Below, piece after piece: positions 9,551-60,576 of a DNA stretch of 64,000 nt; positions within the stretch are counted from its first letter, which is position 1; every line of letters starts with the position of its first letter. Below the pieces are notes generated by a model that did not search any database, was not told the DNA's origin, and saw only the letters and a program-made list of their open reading frames with translations. Both the position numbers and the translations under genes were made by a program. The stretch is from Gammaproteobacteria bacterium (GTDB lineage Bacteria; Pseudomonadota; Gammaproteobacteria; Eutrophobiales; Eutrophobiaceae), in NCBI GenBank assembly GCA_965215365.1, contig CBDCDS010000003.1:1088001-1152000 (forward strand), written 5' to 3'.

Positions 9551-9810
9551 GGGCACCTCTCACAAACACGAGGTGACCGTGCAACACAAGGATGTGCTGC
9601 CAGTAACTGCAAGCACATTTTTTCATTTCCGTCTCACAAATCCGCCCGGAGCGGATTTGGACGTCCGCAGGACGCCCGCAGGGGGCGTCCCAAGGATGGG
9701 ACGCATCACAAAATACCAGGGAGGGCATTTTTAGAGGTTCCCATAATTACCTGCAAGGGGAAATGGGGTAGTATTATGGCAACTTCTAAAAATGCCCTCC
9801 GTGGCATTTT
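9551..9810. repeat. Cluster of family B palindromic repeats with internal REP-like hairpins
   Basis: GGGCACCTCTCACAAACACGAGGTGACC (9551-9578); CAAATCCGCCCGGAGCGGATTTG; AAAATACCAGGGAGGGCATTTTTAGAGGTTCCC (to 9742); AAAATGCCCTCCGTGGCATTTT (to 9810). Confidence 0.75.
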
Positions 9811-47476: not shown

Positions 47477-47851
47477 TCAGTACCTTAAATCCTCTGCGGC
47501 GACATTGAGCGCGCGGGCGATAGCAGCCAGGGTTTTTGTGGCAACGCAACGTCTGCCGGTTTCAATCTGTGACAGATAAACTGAATGAACCCGTACCAGG
47601 CTGGCAAGCTGCTGCTGTGTCATACCGCGAAACTTGCGGTACACCTTGAGTGGGCAGTTGCCGGCCAGAAGACTGTCTGCCACTGCAATGGGAAAAGCTT
47701 CATCAATACTGGATTTGGCTTCGTTGTACAGGTCTTCATCGGTGGGTGGTTGCACCGCACTGCCCATTCTCAGGCAATGATATACCCGCCAGGGAATCAC
47801 TGCGAACATCGGGCTGCCTGTACTGTCACGAATAATTTGCGGTTCTGTCAT
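47477..47851 (-). CDS. XRE-family HTH antitoxin
   Basis: PLKVYRKFRGMTQQQLA...YLSQIETGRR. Confidence 0.88.
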   Translation of the reverse strand: MTEPQIIRDSTGSPMFAVIPWRVYHCLRMGSAVQPPTDEDLYNEAKSSIDEAFPIAVADSLLAGNCPLKVYRKFRGMTQQQLASLVRVHSVYLSQIETGRRCVATKTLAAIARALNVAAEDLRY

Positions 47852-48138
47852 GCCGGCTGGCCCTGTTTGCGCACATCTGCCCGCGCGCCGATGTGCAGAA
47901 CCTCGATCCGGCGAGCCTCGTCATCCCGGTCCAAAATTATCCGGTGGTCTTCGCTGAGCAGCTTGAAGCCCCGATTGCCGGGTAACGGCTTAAGCGCCAG
48001 ATCCCGCCGGTCAGGGTCTTCCGCCAGCCGCTCCAGCAACTGGCGTATGTGCTTCGCATACCTTGCCGGCATATCCAGTAATGCCTGCACGGCTCGTTTC
48101 CTTATGGTCAACTGATAAGTCATATTCCGTAGATACAT
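47848..48138 (-). CDS. RelE/ParE-family toxin (alternative start 48123)
   Basis: YQLTI..RA..AL, LKPL.G..GFKL..EDHRII, IEVLHIGARADV; toxin precedes antitoxin with ATGA overlap. Confidence 0.85.
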   Translation of the reverse strand: MYLRNMTYQLTIRKRAVQALLDMPARYAKHIRQLLERLAEDPDRRDLALKPLPGNRGFKLLSEDHRIILDRDDEARRIEVLHIGARADVRKQGQPA

Positions 48139-48409: not shown

Positions 48410-48440
48410 AGTACCTGCAGCATTACCTAGGCAGGGTGGA

Positions 48441-48496
48441 TTGAAAAGCAAAAGATCATCAAAAATGTGGGAAAAGTCACATTTTTGTGAAAAAAG
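48441..48496. repeat. Orphan fragment of the Uma2-associated element, including the CRP-like box (48463-48484)
   Basis: TGAAAAGCAAAAGATCATCAAAAATGTGGGAAAAGTCACATTTTTGTGAAAAAAG, near-identical to 57442-57496. Confidence 0.85.
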
Positions 48497-48578
48497 TTGA
48501 GCGAGGAGGTAGTTGGTGAGATATGCGGGCTAAACCGGCGAAGTCGGGAGCAAAACGAATTGAGGCTGCGCTTAGGTC

Positions 48579-48968
48579 TCAGCGAATACAACGTATATCA
48601 ACGCCCGGGAGGTTCAGTTGCTCCCAGGCCTTGTCAGCAGTAAGGACCGGGAGGCATGCAATGTATGCCGATGCAAGACAGGCGCGATCACCCAGCCCTA
48701 ATCCCAAGGATTGAGTTGCGACGCGATAGCGGCCGCTCAACAACGCAATATCGATATCAAACGGCAATATCCGAATGCCCAACTCCCTGAATACAAGCGA
48801 GACTTCCTCATCTCCCCAACCCTCCTGATGCAGGCGCGCGGCAACCTCTGCGGCATTGACGGCAGACATCGCCGCGCTGGAACGTAAGGCATCAACAACC
48901 ACATCGGCGCCTGTTTCTTCCAATATCGCCGCCAGCACGGCGGAGGCATCAAGAAGTGTTCCCGCCAT
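48579..48968 (-). CDS. vapC: VapC PIN-domain toxin
   Basis: LLDASAVLA..E, SAVNAAEV, LGLGDRACLA, VLTADKAW. Confidence 0.92.
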   Translation of the reverse strand: MAGTLLDASAVLAAILEETGADVVVDALRSSAAMSAVNAAEVAARLHQEGWGDEEVSLVFRELGIRILPFDIDIALLSGRYRVATQSLGLGLGDRACLASAYIACLPVLTADKAWEQLNLPGVDIRCIR

Positions 48969-48970
48969 TT

Positions 48971-49261
48971 TCAGTCTTGCGCCGCTTCAGCCCGGCGTGC
49001 GGCGATAAATTTATCAACGATGCTGCCGCTACGTTTGCGCTTGCGCCTTGCTATTTGTCTGATTCTCTTCAATCCGGCATCAATAGTCCGAAGCCTGATA
49101 CAGTCATCCTCAAGCGTGACGGTCAGGTCCTGCTCTTCCCGAATGTTCAAGGCCTTTCTCATCCCGGCAGGCACTACCACCCGTCCTGCCCGGTCGATAT
49201 GGACACATTGTGAGAATGCGCGCCCGGATAAGGCGGCGGCAATTTCAAATTTATCAGTCAT
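48971..49261 (-). CDS. vapB: AbrB/MazE/SpoVT-type antitoxin
   Basis: IDRAGRVVVPAGMRKALNI; immediately upstream of vapC. Confidence 0.88.
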   Translation of the reverse strand: MTDKFEIAAALSGRAFSQCVHIDRAGRVVVPAGMRKALNIREEQDLTVTLEDDCIRLRTIDAGLKRIRQIARRKRKRSGSIVDKFIAARRAEAAQD

Positions 49262-56859: not shown

Positions 56860-57080
56860 AGCTATAAATTTAACGAATTTGGACAGCGCAGCTGGCCCCA
56901 TCGGGGCAAACTACACGGATGTAGTTTGCAAATCGTCTATCCTGACGATTTGTCATTTTCAAGCACTTACGTGCTTGCTGTTACTGGCAGCATATCCTTA
57001 TGCTGCACGGGTGCTTCTAATCGCACTGGCGACGCATTATATAATGATCCTGGGTACGGACATAGAATTCGATTCAGGTC

Positions 57081-57166
57081 GCAGCAGGGTGACGGCAACC
57101 TTCTTGGATTTGCAGGCAGAGTCAGGGGGGGGGCGGAAACTTGATGCCTCTCTTAACTTGCCTTCA
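57081..57166 (+). pseudogene. C-terminal-region remnant of an Uma2-family gene
   Basis: RVTATFLDLQAESGGGRKLDASLNLPS aligns with MTVTFLDLQAESKPMEIDMSLNLPD of 59012-59803. Confidence 0.75.
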
Positions 57167-57501
57167 GAGTATCTCCCGACTTCAACATGCCCATGCCAAA
57201 GGGGGTGGCTTGTAGGAGGTCACCAACCGGATGTCAAACCACCCCCTTGGCGCCCGCAGGCTGTCCTTGATCCGTGGCCACGGCCAATGGAAACCGGGCC
57301 CGCCTGCGGGCATGCAGGCAATCAGCAGTTCCAATTCCTTGCAGCTGATCCACCAGCCCCGGTTGCAGTTGCCAGGTGCAACCACTGGGCCCGTGACCTT
57401 GTTCCCTCAGGCAGTGGTGATTCTATCTGTTTCGGATAACCTGAAAAGCAAAAAATCATCAAAAATGTGGGAAAACTCACATTTTTGCGAAAAAAGATGG
57501 C
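57167..57501. repeat. Conserved structured non-coding element, copy 1 (candidate ncRNA/promoter cassette)
   Basis: 335 bp; one visible mismatch versus copy 3; five IR stems; CRP-like box at 57463-57484. Confidence 0.9.
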
Positions 57502-57602
57502 TATTGTGCGCAGCTTCGGCTCCGACAAGACAACAGGGTATCCATTTGTTCGCCGTTCACCACCTAAAGAACTAACCCGCAGATCTCACCCCTTGTCATT
57601 TC

Positions 57603-57611
57603 TGGTATACT
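57603..57611 (+). promoter_or_regulatory. Extended -10 promoter of the Uma2 gene (equivalents at 58967-58975 and 60316-60324)
   Basis: TGGTATACT / TGCTACAAT / TGCTATACT, each after GTCATTTC and 33-36 nt before the ATG. Confidence 0.65.
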
Positions 57612-57644
57612 CGGCGCAGGTTTTGTTAAAAGTGCGGCGGCCAC

Positions 57645-58463
57645 ATGAATAGCGTTACGGCATTATCGTCTAATCCTTTTTTGCACAGCATCGAAGACAG
57701 GCTGCGCGAGCAACTGAAGGAAACAAAACAGACTTCACTGGGGTCGGAGTATGTGGCGTTTCATGCCAGCCGGGACGATGTGGTTGCCTTGGCTGCATCA
57801 GATATGGTGAATACCTTCCGGCGTGTGGTGCTTGATCCGGTACGGGAACTGGTGGTGCTGATGGCGCCAAGTGGAAGGCACGAGTGGATTTCAGGCGATA
57901 TAGATCGTTTTGCCAGCAGTGTGTGTACCTTGAAGGGGATTAAGATGGAACAGCTGAGGGCCACCCGCTGGCGCCGGGAGAGCGATCCGAAGAACACCGG
58001 CAATGAAGCGGATTGCAGTTTTTATTTCGGCGAAAAAGCGCTTGGTTATGTTGCGGCGCGTGCGCGGAGTGAGGATGAGGATGATGCATATACGTTTCGA
58101 GTGCCGCCGGACCTGGTGGTGGAGATAGGGCTGACCCATGTATCGAAGGAGAAATATCTGAGTTACCGGGACAAGGGCGTAGCCGAATTCTGGCAGTTGA
58201 ATGCGCACCCGCGCAAACAGGGCGGAAGCATGGTAACGGTCGCCTTTCTGGATTTACAGGCACAGCCGAGGCCATTGAAAATTGACACATCACTTAATTT
58301 GCCTAGTGTCACTCCGGTGCACGTTAGCAGGTTTTTTCGCCTGCGGTCTGGAAAATTGCTGGATCATTATGAGGTTATCGAAGCAGTTCGCGCGCTCCTT
58401 GAAGATGACAACAGCGGCATGATGGTTCGTGAGGAAGCCGAAGAATATGAACTTGCAAACTGA
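57645..58463 (+). CDS. Uma2/DUF820-family PD-(D/E)XK endonuclease-like protein
   Basis: MAPS..HE, EADCSFY, PPDLVVEI, Y...GV.EFW. Confidence 0.85.
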   Translation: MNSVTALSSNPFLHSIEDRLREQLKETKQTSLGSEYVAFHASRDDVVALAASDMVNTFRRVVLDPVRELVVLMAPSGRHEWISGDIDRFASSVCTLKGIKMEQLRATRWRRESDPKNTGNEADCSFYFGEKALGYVAARARSEDEDDAYTFRVPPDLVVEIGLTHVSKEKYLSYRDKGVAEFWQLNAHPRKQGGSMVTVAFLDLQAQPRPLKIDTSLNLPSVTPVHVSRFFRLRSGKLLDHYEVIEAVRALLEDDNSGMMVREEAEEYELAN

Positions 58464-58546
58464 AGCAAGGACTTACTCATAATACCTAGTCAGTCCTCCG
58501 GCAGCCGCGTTCACTGTCAGTAACAGCCACGATTTTTACCCATTCG

Positions 58547-58872
58547 GGGTATCTCCCGACTTCAACATGCCCATGCCAAAGGGGGTGGCTTGTAGGAGGT
58601 CACCAACCGGATGTCAAACCACCCCCTTGGCGCCCGCAGGCTGTCCTTGATCCGTGGCCACGGCCAATGGAAACCGGGCCCGCCTGCGGGCATGCAGGCA
58701 ATCAGCAGTTCCAGCTGATCCACCAGCCCCGGTTGCAGTTGTCAGGTGCAACCACTGGGCTCGTGACCTTGTTTCCCTCAGGCAATGACGATTCTATCGG
58801 TTTCGGATATCCTGAAAAGCAAAAAATCATCAAAAATGTGGGAAAACTCACATTTTTGTGAAAAAAGATGGC
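58547..58872. repeat. Conserved structured non-coding element, copy 2
   Basis: 326 bp; 10-nt loop deletion, 1-nt insertion and a few substitutions; CRP-like box at 58834-58855. Confidence 0.9.
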
Positions 58873-59011
58873 TATTATGTGCAGCTTCGGCTCCAACGGG
58901 ACAACAGGGCATCCATTTGTTCGCCGTTCATCGCATCAAGAATCGAATTCGTCCCCCGGTCATTTCTGCTACAATTAACGCAGGTTTAATTCAAGGTATG
59001 GGGACGGCGAT

Positions 59012-59803
59012 ATGAACAGTGTTACGGCCTTGCCTGCCAATCTTCTTTTGCAGGACAGGGAAGTTAAAAGTACATCTTTAGGGTCTGGATACGTCGCGTT
59101 TCATGCCAGCCGGGATGAGGTGGTTGCCTTGGCGGCCTCAGACCTGGTGAATACGTTCCGGCGGGTGGTACTCGATCCGGTGCGTGGCCTGGTGATGCTG
59201 ATGTCGCCGAGTGCCGGGCATGATGATGTTTCGGGGGTAATAGATGATTTTGTCGGCAGCGTTACCACCTTGAAGAAAATTAAGACAAAAAAACTGCGTG
59301 CTACCCGCTGGCGTCAGGAGAATGAACCGAAGAACACCGGTAATGAAGCAGATTGCAGTTTTTACTTTGGTGACAAGGCTCGGGGTTTCGCAAAAGCGAG
59401 TTCGATGAGTATTGAGGAAGGCGATGCTTACTCGTTCAAGGTGCCGCCAGACCTGGTGGTTGAGGTTGGGCTTACCCATGTATCAAAGCAGAAGTACCTG
59501 AGTTATCGGGACAAGGGAGTGGTCGAGCTCTGGCAGTTGAATGCCCGTTCTCACAGGCAGGGTCACAGGATAATGACAGTGACCTTTTTGGATTTGCAGG
59601 CGGAGTCGAAGCCGATGGAAATTGACATGTCACTTAATCTTCCCGATGTCACGCCTGCTCACGTTGCCAGGTTCATACGAGAACAGTCTGGAAAATTACT
59701 GGATCATTATGAGGTTATCGAAGCAGTTCGCGCACTCCTTGAAGATGACAACAGCGGCATGATGGTTCGTGAGGAAGCCGAAGAGTACGAGGCCGCAAGC
59801 TGA
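59012..59803 (+). CDS. Uma2/DUF820-family endonuclease-like protein, diverged paralogue
   Basis: MSPS..HD, EADCSFY, PPDLVVEV, Y...GV.ELW. Confidence 0.85.
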   Translation: MNSVTALPANLLLQDREVKSTSLGSGYVAFHASRDEVVALAASDLVNTFRRVVLDPVRGLVMLMSPSAGHDDVSGVIDDFVGSVTTLKKIKTKKLRATRWRQENEPKNTGNEADCSFYFGDKARGFAKASSMSIEEGDAYSFKVPPDLVVEVGLTHVSKQKYLSYRDKGVVELWQLNARSHRQGHRIMTVTFLDLQAESKPMEIDMSLNLPDVTPAHVARFIREQSGKLLDHYEVIEAVRALLEDDNSGMMVREEAEEYEAAS

Positions 59804-59886
59804 AGCAAGGGCTTACCTGTAATGTCTGGCAGGTCCTACGGCAGCCACGCTTGCCGGGAATGATAGCCAGGATTTTTATTGCCTCG

Positions 59887-60221
59887 GAGTATCTCCCGAC
59901 TTCAACATGCCCATGCCAAAGGGGGTGGCTTGTAGGAGGTCACCAACCGGATGTCAAACCACCCCCTTGGCGCCCGCAGGCTGTCCTTGATCCGTGGCCA
60001 CGGCCAATGGAAACCGGGCCCGCCTGCGGGCATGCAGGCAATCAGCAGTTCCAATTCCTTGCAGCTGATCCACCAGCCCCGGTTGCAGTTGCCAGGTGCA
60101 ACCACTGGGCCCGTGACCTTGTTCCCTCAGGCAGTGGTGATTCTATCTGTTTCGGATAACCTGAAAAGCAAAAAATCATCAAAAATGTGGGAAAACTCAC
60201 ATTTTTGTGAAAAAAGATGGC
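59887..60221. repeat. Conserved structured non-coding element, copy 3
   Basis: 335 bp; CRP-like box at 60183-60204. Confidence 0.9.
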
Positions 60222-60360
60222 AGTCGCGCGCAGTTTTGCTCTTCAACAGGGCGAGAAGGCATCTGTTTGTTCGCCATTCACCGCCTGAAGAACCTGAAGC
60301 GCCGCTTGTCATTTCTGCTATACTCAACCTAGGTTTTATGCAAACTACGACGGCAGCTAC

Positions 60361-60576
60361 ATGAACAGCGTTACGGCGTTATCGGCTAATCCTTTTTTGC
60401 GCAGCATCGAAGACAGGCTACGTGAGCGACTGGGGGACATGCAATGCACTGCCTTTGGCTCGGAGTACGTTGCGTTCCATGCCAGCCGGGATGAGGCAGT
60501 TCGCAATCTCCTTGAAGACAGGAACAGTGGCATGATGATTCGTGAGGAAGCAGAAGAATACGAACTTGTAAGCTGA
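60361..60576 (+). pseudogene. Uma2 paralogue with in-frame deletion of the entire catalytic core
   Basis: N-terminus (…YVAFHASRDE) is joined to the C-terminus (AVRNLLED.NSGMM.REEAEEYE). Confidence 0.85.

Follow-up and report, generated by a model that had tools for sequence, protein, structure and literature searches.

A 64,000-nucleotide (nt) stretch of a gammaproteobacterial genome (positions 1,088,001 to 1,152,000 of contig CBDCDS010000003.1, assembly GCA_965215365.1; hereafter the window) contains an intergenic unit of about 345 nt in three copies, at 57164–57510, 58544–58890 and 59884–60240, which very probably represents small RNA genes of a new structured family confined to one genus. 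We hold with high confidence that the unit is real as a conserved element. Our analysis established its conserved structure, its strand preference, its promoter architecture, its lack of coding potential and its restriction to one genus. The explanation that best accommodates these features, and that we consider probable from the sequence comparisons, is that the unit is an independent small RNA gene on the minus strand with an activator-dependent promoter.

In the mechanism we propose, every repeat would be a gene in its own right, encoding on the minus strand a structured small RNA of ~225 nt. A sigma-70-type promoter (TTTTCA, a 16-nt spacer and TAGAAT) would be served by a CRP-consensus-type activator site at a class-I-like position, and transcription of copy 1 would run from about 57412 to an end near 57186. 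The RNA is predicted to fold into a variable 5′ domain, in which hairpin H1 (loop AAGGAA) is followed by helix H2 and a segment with AAUGGAA, and a conserved 3′ domain organized as a three-way junction. It may act in trans, with its four ANGGA motifs recognized by a protein. The foremost candidate for this partner is the single CsrA of the genome, which would be titrated when a CRP-like regulator is active.

Repeat units, homologues and conserved fold

No further copies of the unit were found in the whole 2.73-Mb genome. Copy 3 matches copy 1 at every position over 300 nt (100% identity), and copy 2 is 94% identical to it, compared with 76–88% for the surrounding coding sequences. We placed the 5′ end of the RNA 7–8 nt past the −10 box, where a conserved G begins H1, and the 3′ end at the limit of conservation (...GGGCAUG). 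With these ends, the predicted RNAs, all on the minus strand, span 57186–57412 in copy 1 (~227 nt), 58566–58783 in copy 2 and 59906–60132 in copy 3, which is identical to copy 1. R1, a covariance model of the 3′ domain, matches each of them (57324–57183 with 121.5 bits, 58704–58563 and 60044–59903, respectively). Relative to copy 1, copy 2 carries a 10-nt deletion (57333–57342) and a C>T change (57373), both of which lie in loops, as the original prediction on this DNA had stated. It also has a C>T change at 57392, which turns a G-U into an A-U pair in the minus-strand fold, a single extra nucleotide in the first hairpin's loop, and three more changes, all upstream of the predicted start.

BLAST homologues, with 70–87% identity, are present in 15 of 22 genomes of the same genus and were found neither in 14 other genera of the family nor in 24 other families. 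R1 extends this picture: it matches 19 of the 22 other genomes of the genus, with one to nine copies each and a single copy in eight genomes, and none of 103 genomes across 33 other genera of the family (stricter filters were applied to large sets). We additionally scanned 185,579 species genomes with an exact 21-nt pattern, which returned 56 stretches. The 33 that also match the covariance model come from records titled uncultured Gammaproteobacteria, bar one titled Enterobacteriaceae, which is the same contig as a member of the genus (G011). The remaining 23 fail the model and, with 21 of them titled as other taxa, serve as chance controls. No Rfam 15 family (4227 families) overlaps the unit at E-values up to 10, and none matches in eight homologous loci at E-values up to 5.

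An alignment of 42 distinct full-length copies, with a mean column identity of 59%, splits in two: a main clade, which includes this genome and is often multi-copy, and a divergent clade, which is often single-copy. Five distant paralogues with the same promoter module were seen at G004:C1:424996, 427834 and 829010 and at G009:C6:496249 and 498602 (loci L168–L172). They score 33–38 bits against R1 and keep helices Pc, P2b and P1 (described below) and one junction-loop AAGGAU, but have neither the outer P2 helix nor the GGA that comes first in the junction. Because such paralogues exist, the RNA family is wider than R1 shows.

The original prediction proposed four stems: stem 1 at 57195–57251, stem 2 at 57252–57311, stem 3 (ATCAGC/GCTGAT) and stem 4 (GGTTGCA/TGCAACC). 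All four are present, in the minimum-energy folds of both strands. Set against shuffles, the single sequence folds modestly beyond chance on either strand: the minus strand at −117.3 kcal/mol (z −2.27, 4 of 200 shuffles as good) and the plus strand at −109.8 kcal/mol (z −2.63, none of 200 shuffles as good). Single-sequence folding alone shows neither structure nor strand, whereas the comparative evidence shows both.

Across the genus, the 3′ domain is a three-way junction composed of a closing helix Pc, a helix P2 with an inner hairpin P2b, and a hairpin P1. Hairpin P1 (stem 1; 57195–57251) is long and G+C-rich, with its two helices paired in 90.1% and 89.3% of the alignment cells and 6 of 13 pairs changed on both sides. 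The best helix is P2 (stem 2; 57302–57311 with 57252–57261), paired in 97.6% of cells and with three of eight pairs changed on both sides. Its centre, which in 23 of 41 distinct sequences consists of a tandem G·A/A·G but in this genome of G-C/C-G, is flanked by C-G/U-A and G-C/A-U/G-U exchanges. The closing helix Pc (57315–57320 with 57188–57193) is paired in 86% of cells; two of its six pairs are changed on both sides, and one position exchanges G-C, U-G and U-A. Hairpin P2b (57294–57300 with 57276–57283) is 91.7% paired in the model-guided alignment. The proposed structured RNA was thereby corroborated, with the 3′ domain, built from stems 1 and 2, kept across the genus through compensatory changes. 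Stems 3 and 4, as originally written, occur only here and in the nearest relative (G006); the helices at these positions differ in other species.

Pairing was scored on two alignments, one built by MAFFT without knowledge of the structure and one guided by the model, which leans to the model by construction. Among the 41 distinct 3′ domains aligned by MAFFT alone, 83.6% of 1467 cells pair, compared with 56.4% and 56.8% when the partners are slid by one column. Both sides changed in 71 cells versus 35 and 34 in these slid controls, and the covariation score is 0.175 versus 0.091 and 0.127. In the model-guided alignment (49 distinct rows), 91.4% of cells are paired, 14 of 34 pairs changed on both sides, and the covariation score is 0.209 versus at most 0.107 in shifted-partner controls. 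Two observations temper this support: the sequences are relatives, so the covariation signal partly reflects shared ancestry, and in an unbiased column-pair scan single pairs of columns covary at random places too. The latter scan is uninformative because the two clades make unrelated columns covary, and for both reasons the helix-level and slid controls are the meaningful ones.

The junction loop ACGGAUCAAGGACA (57262–57275, minus strand), with its two ANGGA motifs, is conserved more strongly than any other stretch of the RNA: of 14 columns, nine are identical in 42/42 sequences, two more are kept in 40–41 of the 42, and across the family it takes the form A(C/G)GGAUCA(G/A)GGACA. The loop ACGGAUCA(A/G)GGACA, to which the original prediction had pointed, thus turned out to be the most conserved part of the molecule. 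The 5′ domain is more variable. It begins with hairpin H1 (GCCU...AGGU; 57396–57412), which is supported by three RNAalifold pairs and has an A(A/G)GGAA loop whose columns are kept in 38–41 of the 42 sequences. There follow, at 57321–57395 on the same strand, the two-part helix H2 and an AA(U/A/C)GGAA hairpin or segment; this region includes stems 3 and 4. H2 is a helix in every clade, but one of differing sequence, and the GGA of the AA(U/A/C)GGAA motif is found in 40 of the 42 sequences.

Two finer structural proposals did not generalize. CATGCCC/GGGCATG can compete with stem 2 in the main clade alone, which has AUGCCC in duplicate; the 3′ GGGCAUG pairs instead with the segment upstream of stem 2, forming Pc, as in the divergent clade, and this pairing covaries. 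Likewise, the loop GACCUCCU, suggested to resemble an anti-Shine-Dalgarno sequence, is kept in a subset of the homologues only.

The comparative data also bear on the strand. RNAalifold gives the 3′ domain −22.0 kcal/mol on the minus strand versus −13.7 on the plus strand, and when sequences are folded singly, 38 of 42 are more stable as the minus strand over the whole RNA, and 35 of 42 over the 3′ domain. The proposed pairs include 89 G-U cells versus 40 A·C cells, and the tandem G·A is stabilizing on the minus strand only. The originally proposed minus-strand orientation is thus favored by strand-specific G-U and G·A pairs as well as by alignment folding, and the RNA is very probably transcribed from that strand. 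Coding potential was considered and rejected: no open reading frame (ORF) is conserved among the 42 copies, the longest ORFs (2–78 codons on the RNA strand and 15–83 on the other) are inconsistent in their frame, start point and length, and the indels do not come in multiples of three. A 1-nt indel in the invariant core itself sets this genome apart from all others.

Promoter architecture and candidate regulator

The minus-strand −10 box TAGAAT (57420–57425), which the original prediction reported for all three copies, is indeed common to them (58791–58796 in copy 2 and 60140–60145 in copy 3) and was also found by a promoter scan. A −10 of the form TAnnAT occurs in 42/42 homologues: TAAAAT in 29, TACAAT in five, TAAGAT in four, TAGAAT in three and TAATAT in one. 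Separated from it by a 16-nt spacer is a −35-like TTTTCA (57442–57447; 58813–58818 and 60162–60167 in copies 2 and 3), which lies within the conserved GCTTTTCA. The scan scored this combination of TTTTCA, 16 nt and TAGAAT at 9/12 and identified it as the sole promoter-like site in 56900–57700, on the minus strand. The −10 box and promoter are conserved genus-wide, in agreement with the original suggestion that the RNA has a minus-strand promoter of its own.

Upstream of these boxes lies a CRP-consensus-type palindrome (TGTGg-N6-TCACA; 57466–57481, with 58837–58852 and 60186–60201 in the other copies), the presumed activator site, at conserved spacing. TGTG-N8-CACA is present in 41 of 42 homologues, in each ending exactly 40 nt before the −10 box, and the exact form TGTGA-N6-TCACA in 28 of the 42. 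If transcription starts 7–8 nt after the −10 box, as predicted, the palindrome is centered at −60.5 to −61.5. The region near −61 is the classical class I position of CRP, whose sites may also lie one or more helical turns further upstream, and given the predicted start the element has the corresponding geometry, with a site near −61.5 of a sigma-70 promoter. The 6-nt spacer of the palindrome is itself conserved as (G/C)TTTT(C/A), which is unusual for CRP sites. A terminator scan flagged the palindrome as terminator-like on the minus strand. We rejected this assignment in favor of a protein site because in the divergent clade no more than the 5-bp TGTGA/TCACA arms can pair.

A single CRP/FNR-family protein, with cNMP-binding and HTH_Crp_2 domains (G000:C3:2446338–2447069), is encoded in the genome and is a candidate for the regulator. 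Its recognition helix reads R-E-x-V-x-R, as in CRP. Its best NCBIfam match is CRP, but the score of 53 bits against a cut-off of 266 cautions against giving it that name.

Related promoter modules occur elsewhere in the genome. The palindrome recurs at G000:C3:644596–644617 (L103), equally spaced from a −10 box (TAGACT) and ahead of a ComEA-like helix-hairpin-helix gene, which hints that the regulator reading this site may also control DNA uptake. A lone promoter module (48423–48502; palindrome at 48463–48484, plus GCTTTTCA) has no structured RNA and a poor −10 box (TAATGC), and sits between a VapBC-like pair (48579–49261, minus strand) and a RelE/HigA-like pair (47477–48138, minus strand). 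Seven exact copies of TGTGAGAAAACTCACA (G000:C1:33934, C2:3318, C2:5201, C2:5907, C3:300785, C3:303459 and C3:1649594) stand in two repeated promoter families spread over all three contigs, two of which are small (76 and 17 kb). These copies lie ~40–41 nt upstream of a good −10 box (TTGACA...TATACT, or TATAAT) and precede repeated genes of 341 and about 155 codons.

Candidate function and alternative explanations

The bases of the RNA that are kept best form four nearly invariant, mostly unpaired ANGGA motifs: one in the H1 loop, one in the AA(U/A/C)GGAA segment and two in the junction loop. The original prediction that minus-strand loops expose GGA motifs was confirmed at these four conserved sites, whose mean predicted unpaired probability is 0.57–0.69 (0.69 for the H1 loop motif). 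By a strict column count GGA is kept at them in 34–42 of the 42 sequences, and the motifs are predicted to be exposed in 24–31 of 41–42 sequences. Each RNA has 3.9 ANGGA on average versus 1.0 in dinucleotide shuffles, a comparison that rests on 42 related copies, which are not independent tests.

CsrA is described as binding GGA in hairpin loops or single strands, with a CsrB repeat of CAGGA(U/A/C)G and, from SELEX, a consensus of RUACARGGAUGU; the same source holds that CsrA-antagonist small RNAs are thought to be expressed by most, perhaps all, Gammaproteobacteria (PMC7652899). We found one canonical csrA gene here, for a protein of 94 residues (113.6 bits versus a cut-off of 73), and csrA is present in 22 of 23 genomes of the genus. 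The Rfam models of known antagonists (CsrB RF00018, PrrB_RsmZ RF00166 and RsmY RF00195) gave nothing over their cut-offs in the whole genome and nothing at the unit; CsrC and RsmX were covered by the local cmscan only. FliW was not found in this genome. There is also no gene with a GerE domain (LuxR-type helix-turn-helix) in this 97.6%-complete genome, and hence no UvrY/GacA, while each of the 22 other genomes of the genus has at least one such gene, which suggests that this genome, the smallest of the genus, lost a whole regulator class. With csrA present, no match to CsrB, RsmZ or RsmY, no FliW and no UvrY/GacA, there is room for an unconventional CsrA antagonist. Transcription driven by GacA/UvrY does not apply here, as the upstream site is TGTGA-N6-TCACA; a GacA box has the form TGTAAG-N6-CTTACA.

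Titration of CsrA is our leading guess as to function, though a tentative one, and several observations count against it. Total GGA is barely enriched (6.3 versus 5.1 expected, ~1 per 36 nt), and some divergent-clade members are predicted to have the second motif base-paired. A distance of 7 nt separates the junction motifs, under the 10–63 nt that one CsrA dimer is described as bridging (PMC7652899). Nor does an intrinsic terminator follow the conserved 3′ end. Three genomes of the genus have csrA and no R1 match, and the RNA was found in no other genus of the family among the 33 searched. In addition, a 217-residue response regulator of G006 best matches UvrY/SirA/GacA (180.5 bits, below the cut-off of 280), so that classical GacA-driven sponges may exist in the genus. 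We therefore keep a wider reading, in which the RNA would be a trans-acting small RNA that binds a protein partner.

No simple base-pairing target emerged: the reverse complement of the invariant loop (allowing up to three mismatches) gave one match elsewhere in the genome, with three mismatches. Among the four ANGGA-densest scan windows (the top four of 35 with five or more motifs), none is intergenic, and as further sponge candidates these were dismissed, being coding repeats only. A possible second small RNA at G000:C3:1554653, with the same promoter module, AGGGA/ACGGA loops, a U-tail and an Rsm-like appearance, was dropped because its hairpins belong to a dispersed ~86-nt repeat. This three-hairpin repeat, with AGGGAA and ACGGA loops and a U-tract end, has at least 21 matches in the genome (for example, window positions 9657–9742 and G000:C3:1554495–1554611, L102) and is weakly RsmZ-like (16.8 bits versus a cut-off of 44).

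Two observations count against the small RNA gene reading. A search for RNA runs that contain 57100–57640 returned none, the five matching runs being contig-only and of unspecified kind. The other observation concerns the 3′ end. An intrinsic terminator (hairpin plus U-tract) follows the conserved end in none of the 42 tails inspected, in any clade, and the terminator scan of 56900–57700 found none at the conserved 3′ end; the 3′ end and length of the RNA are consequently guesses. At the same time, conservation stops exactly at the 3′ strand of Pc, and the downstream genes that we examined (proS, a small MNYEL... gene and a PDDEXK_10-like gene) are each separated from the RNA by an extended −10 box of their own. 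These two features argue that the RNA is a separate unit.

In the window, the unit copies part tandem Uma2-like ORFs (57645–58463 and 59012–59803), a label that is itself weak, since the first gene scores 27.6 bits against a Pfam cut-off of 27 and the second has no match. A third Uma2-like gene (60361–60576) is a 71-codon in-frame fusion of N- and C-terminal ends, and a 3′ remnant of a fourth (57077–57123) lies ahead of RNA copy 1; unequal recombination within the tandem array left both behind. Extended −10-like boxes TGGTATACT, TGCTACAAT and TGCTATACT, at 57604–57612, about 58969–58977 and 60318–60326, lie ~35 nt upstream of each Uma2-like start codon and ~140 nt from the palindrome, and are likely the promoters of the Uma2-like genes.

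We then asked whether the association with Uma2 is specific, using the 42 unique copies flanked by 1.5 kb or more on both sides (27 of the main and 15 of the divergent clade). A Uma2-like gene lies within 1.5 kb of 15 of them and of none of the 15 divergent-clade copies, so the specific Uma2 link implied by the original prediction found no support as a general feature. A gene for a 231-residue PDDEXK_10-like protein is near five of the 42, and either nuclease-like gene near 19, all of the main clade. The 231-residue protein (L007:689–1381, minus strand; homologues in G008, G018 and G021) is charged and coiled in its N-terminal half and matches PD-(D/E)XK marginally (PDDEXK_10 21.4 bits, Hjc 21.3 bits), and its gene recurs 122–265 nt downstream of the RNA on the same strand. 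Five divergent-clade copies, at five loci, instead lie 90–320 nt upstream of proS on the same strand; at divergent-clade loci L092, L089, L069, L043 and L063 (and L094) the RNA gene adjoins proS and arsC, which may be its ancestral position. Main-clade copies lie in islands of polysaccharide and toxin-antitoxin genes. Taken together, this distribution suggests an older core RNA gene, of which a sub-family was later amplified in variable islands.

These neighborhoods raise the alternative that the RNA is a cis antisense or antitoxin-like partner, or a regulator, of neighboring PD-(D/E)XK-fold nuclease genes, acting by read-through into the convergent Uma2-like gene or by control of the divergent one through the shared region. 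We regard this as unlikely, despite recurring geometries around the 19 of 27 main-clade copies that have a nuclease-like gene within 1.5 kb: Uma2-like genes are divergent at 279–389 nt or convergent at ~105–135 nt, and the 231-residue PDDEXK_10-like gene is on the same strand at 122–265 nt. The RNA and Uma2-like genes were moreover amplified together in tandem here, in G006 and in G018, the unit is more conserved than its flanking genes (94–100% versus 76–88%), and no terminator separates the RNA from the downstream sequence. However, tandem duplication of a segment suffices for co-amplification, none of the 15 divergent-clade copies has such a neighbor (five lie upstream of proS instead), three further Uma2-family matches in the genome are without the RNA, and the frailty of the Uma2 label itself counts here. 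The RNA and the genes do not overlap, being separated by a gap of 85–135 nt, and the downstream genes examined have their own extended −10 promoters. Type I antitoxin RNAs overlap a toxin mRNA in antisense, and type III antitoxins are short tandem repeats just upstream of the toxin on its own strand. These hallmarks are absent as well, as there is no ORF overlap, no internal tandem repeats and no constant neighbor, although antisense transcription by read-through may occur.

A more elaborate variant, which we consider improbable, is that the main-clade RNA would be a subunit or antidote of an RNA-controlled or RNA-guided PD-(D/E)XK nuclease module, recruited from the core small RNA and tandemly multiplied in polysaccharide and toxin-antitoxin islands, with a cAMP-receptor-like switch perhaps shared with the comEA-like gene.

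Equally improbable, in our assessment, is that the unit is a cassette of promoter and leader, in which the RNA would be the structured, protein- or ligand-binding 5′ leader of a same-strand downstream gene. The lack of a terminator after the RNA agrees with such a leader, as does the same-strand gene that starts 56–370 nt downstream in many copies: 284 nt downstream of copy 1 begins an operon encoding a GFO/IDH/MocA oxidoreductase and a DegT aminotransferase, and other copies precede PIN, PDDEXK_10-like or proS genes. CsrA-bound leaders of polysaccharide operons, pgaA and psl, are also described (PMC7652899). Yet the downstream genes come from unrelated families, the distance to the next gene varies widely, and in copies 2 and 3 and about ten others that gene is convergent. 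Separate extended −10 promoters precede proS, the MNYEL... gene and the PDDEXK_10-like gene, and the sharp stop of conservation at the 3′ strand of Pc likewise speaks against a leader.

It is very improbable that the unit is a repeat acting at the DNA level (a mobile element, recombination site or repetitive extragenic palindromic (REP)-like sequence) and has no functional transcript. Its multiple copies (one to nine per genome), sharp borders and differing flanks would suit such a repeat, and the genome is rich in small mobile repeats. Against it, the G-U and G·A pairs are strand-specific, the most conserved positions are unpaired loop bases, 41 of 42 copies have a full promoter whose position is fixed, and eight genomes have a single copy. 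The borders show neither terminal inverted repeats nor target duplications. A miniature inverted-repeat transposable element or REP sequence was specifically considered: the ends, CATGCCC... and ...CACATTTTTGCGAAAAAAG, are not inverted copies, no flank is duplicated and only three copies exist here, and for want of inverted ends we rejected the transposable-element reading.

Finally, a plus-strand feature, whether the 3′ untranslated region or terminator of the upstream Uma2-like gene, the 5′ untranslated region of the downstream one or a small protein gene, is the least credible explanation: the plus strand also folds better than shuffles and ORFs of 50–102 codons overlap the unit in this genome, but its fold from the alignment is far less stable, no sequence upstream of CATGCCC is conserved and there is thus no conserved plus-strand promoter, the flanking genes vary, and neither the ORFs nor the indel lengths behave as in a coding sequence.

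Comparison with known systems

An independent small RNA gene, the reading that we prefer, most readily recalls the sponges of the Csr/Rsm system (CsrB, CsrC and RsmX/Y/Z). Like them, the new element would be a stand-alone small RNA gene with an upstream palindromic activator site, it carries conserved A(N)GGA motifs predicted to lie in loops or single strands in a host that encodes CsrA, and it often has several paralogous copies per genome. The rsmX and rsmZ genes, for instance, are multi-copy and tandem in Pseudomonas and Azotobacter. The differences are nonetheless considerable. The new RNA matches none of the Rfam models of the sponges, and it is a rigid, G+C-rich three-way junction without an intrinsic terminator rather than a string of small hairpins. 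Its presumed activator site is TGTGA-N6-TCACA and not a GacA/UvrY box, in a genome without a GerE-domain regulator. It has four conserved ANGGA motifs in ~225 nt, whereas CsrB is described as having ~18 CAGGA(U/A/C)G repeats (PMC7652899).

In its promoter, the element resembles genes under CRP control. CyaR and Spot 42 are CRP-controlled small RNA genes of enterobacteria, and lac is a class I CRP promoter; as in these, a TGTGA-N6-TCACA site, centered near −61, is found in a small RNA promoter. Unlike CyaR and Spot 42, with which it has no similarity of sequence or structure, the new RNA has no Hfq-type terminator tail, the single CRP/FNR-family protein of the genome is only distantly CRP-like, and the 6-nt spacer of the site is conserved.

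Should the tentative CsrA reading be true, the lineage would have a CsrA antagonist wired to a CRP-type signal and not to GacS/GacA, and the loss of every GerE-type regulator in this genome would fit such wiring. Should the less likely nuclease reading be true instead, the RNA would be the first functional partner of the large, uncharacterized Uma2 family.

The element also resembles the candidate structured RNAs collected in Rfam, being defined by helices that covary, by loop bases that do not change and by its restriction to few taxa. It differs from them in being absent from the 4227 families of Rfam 15 and in coming with a recognizable conserved promoter, which speaks for a gene and not a leader. 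The gain is a well-supported new family of structured RNAs, with a promoter, an activator site and a three-way-junction core, in a genus known only from metagenome-assembled genomes, and R1 together with the fixed promoter geometry makes this RNA easy to find and test.

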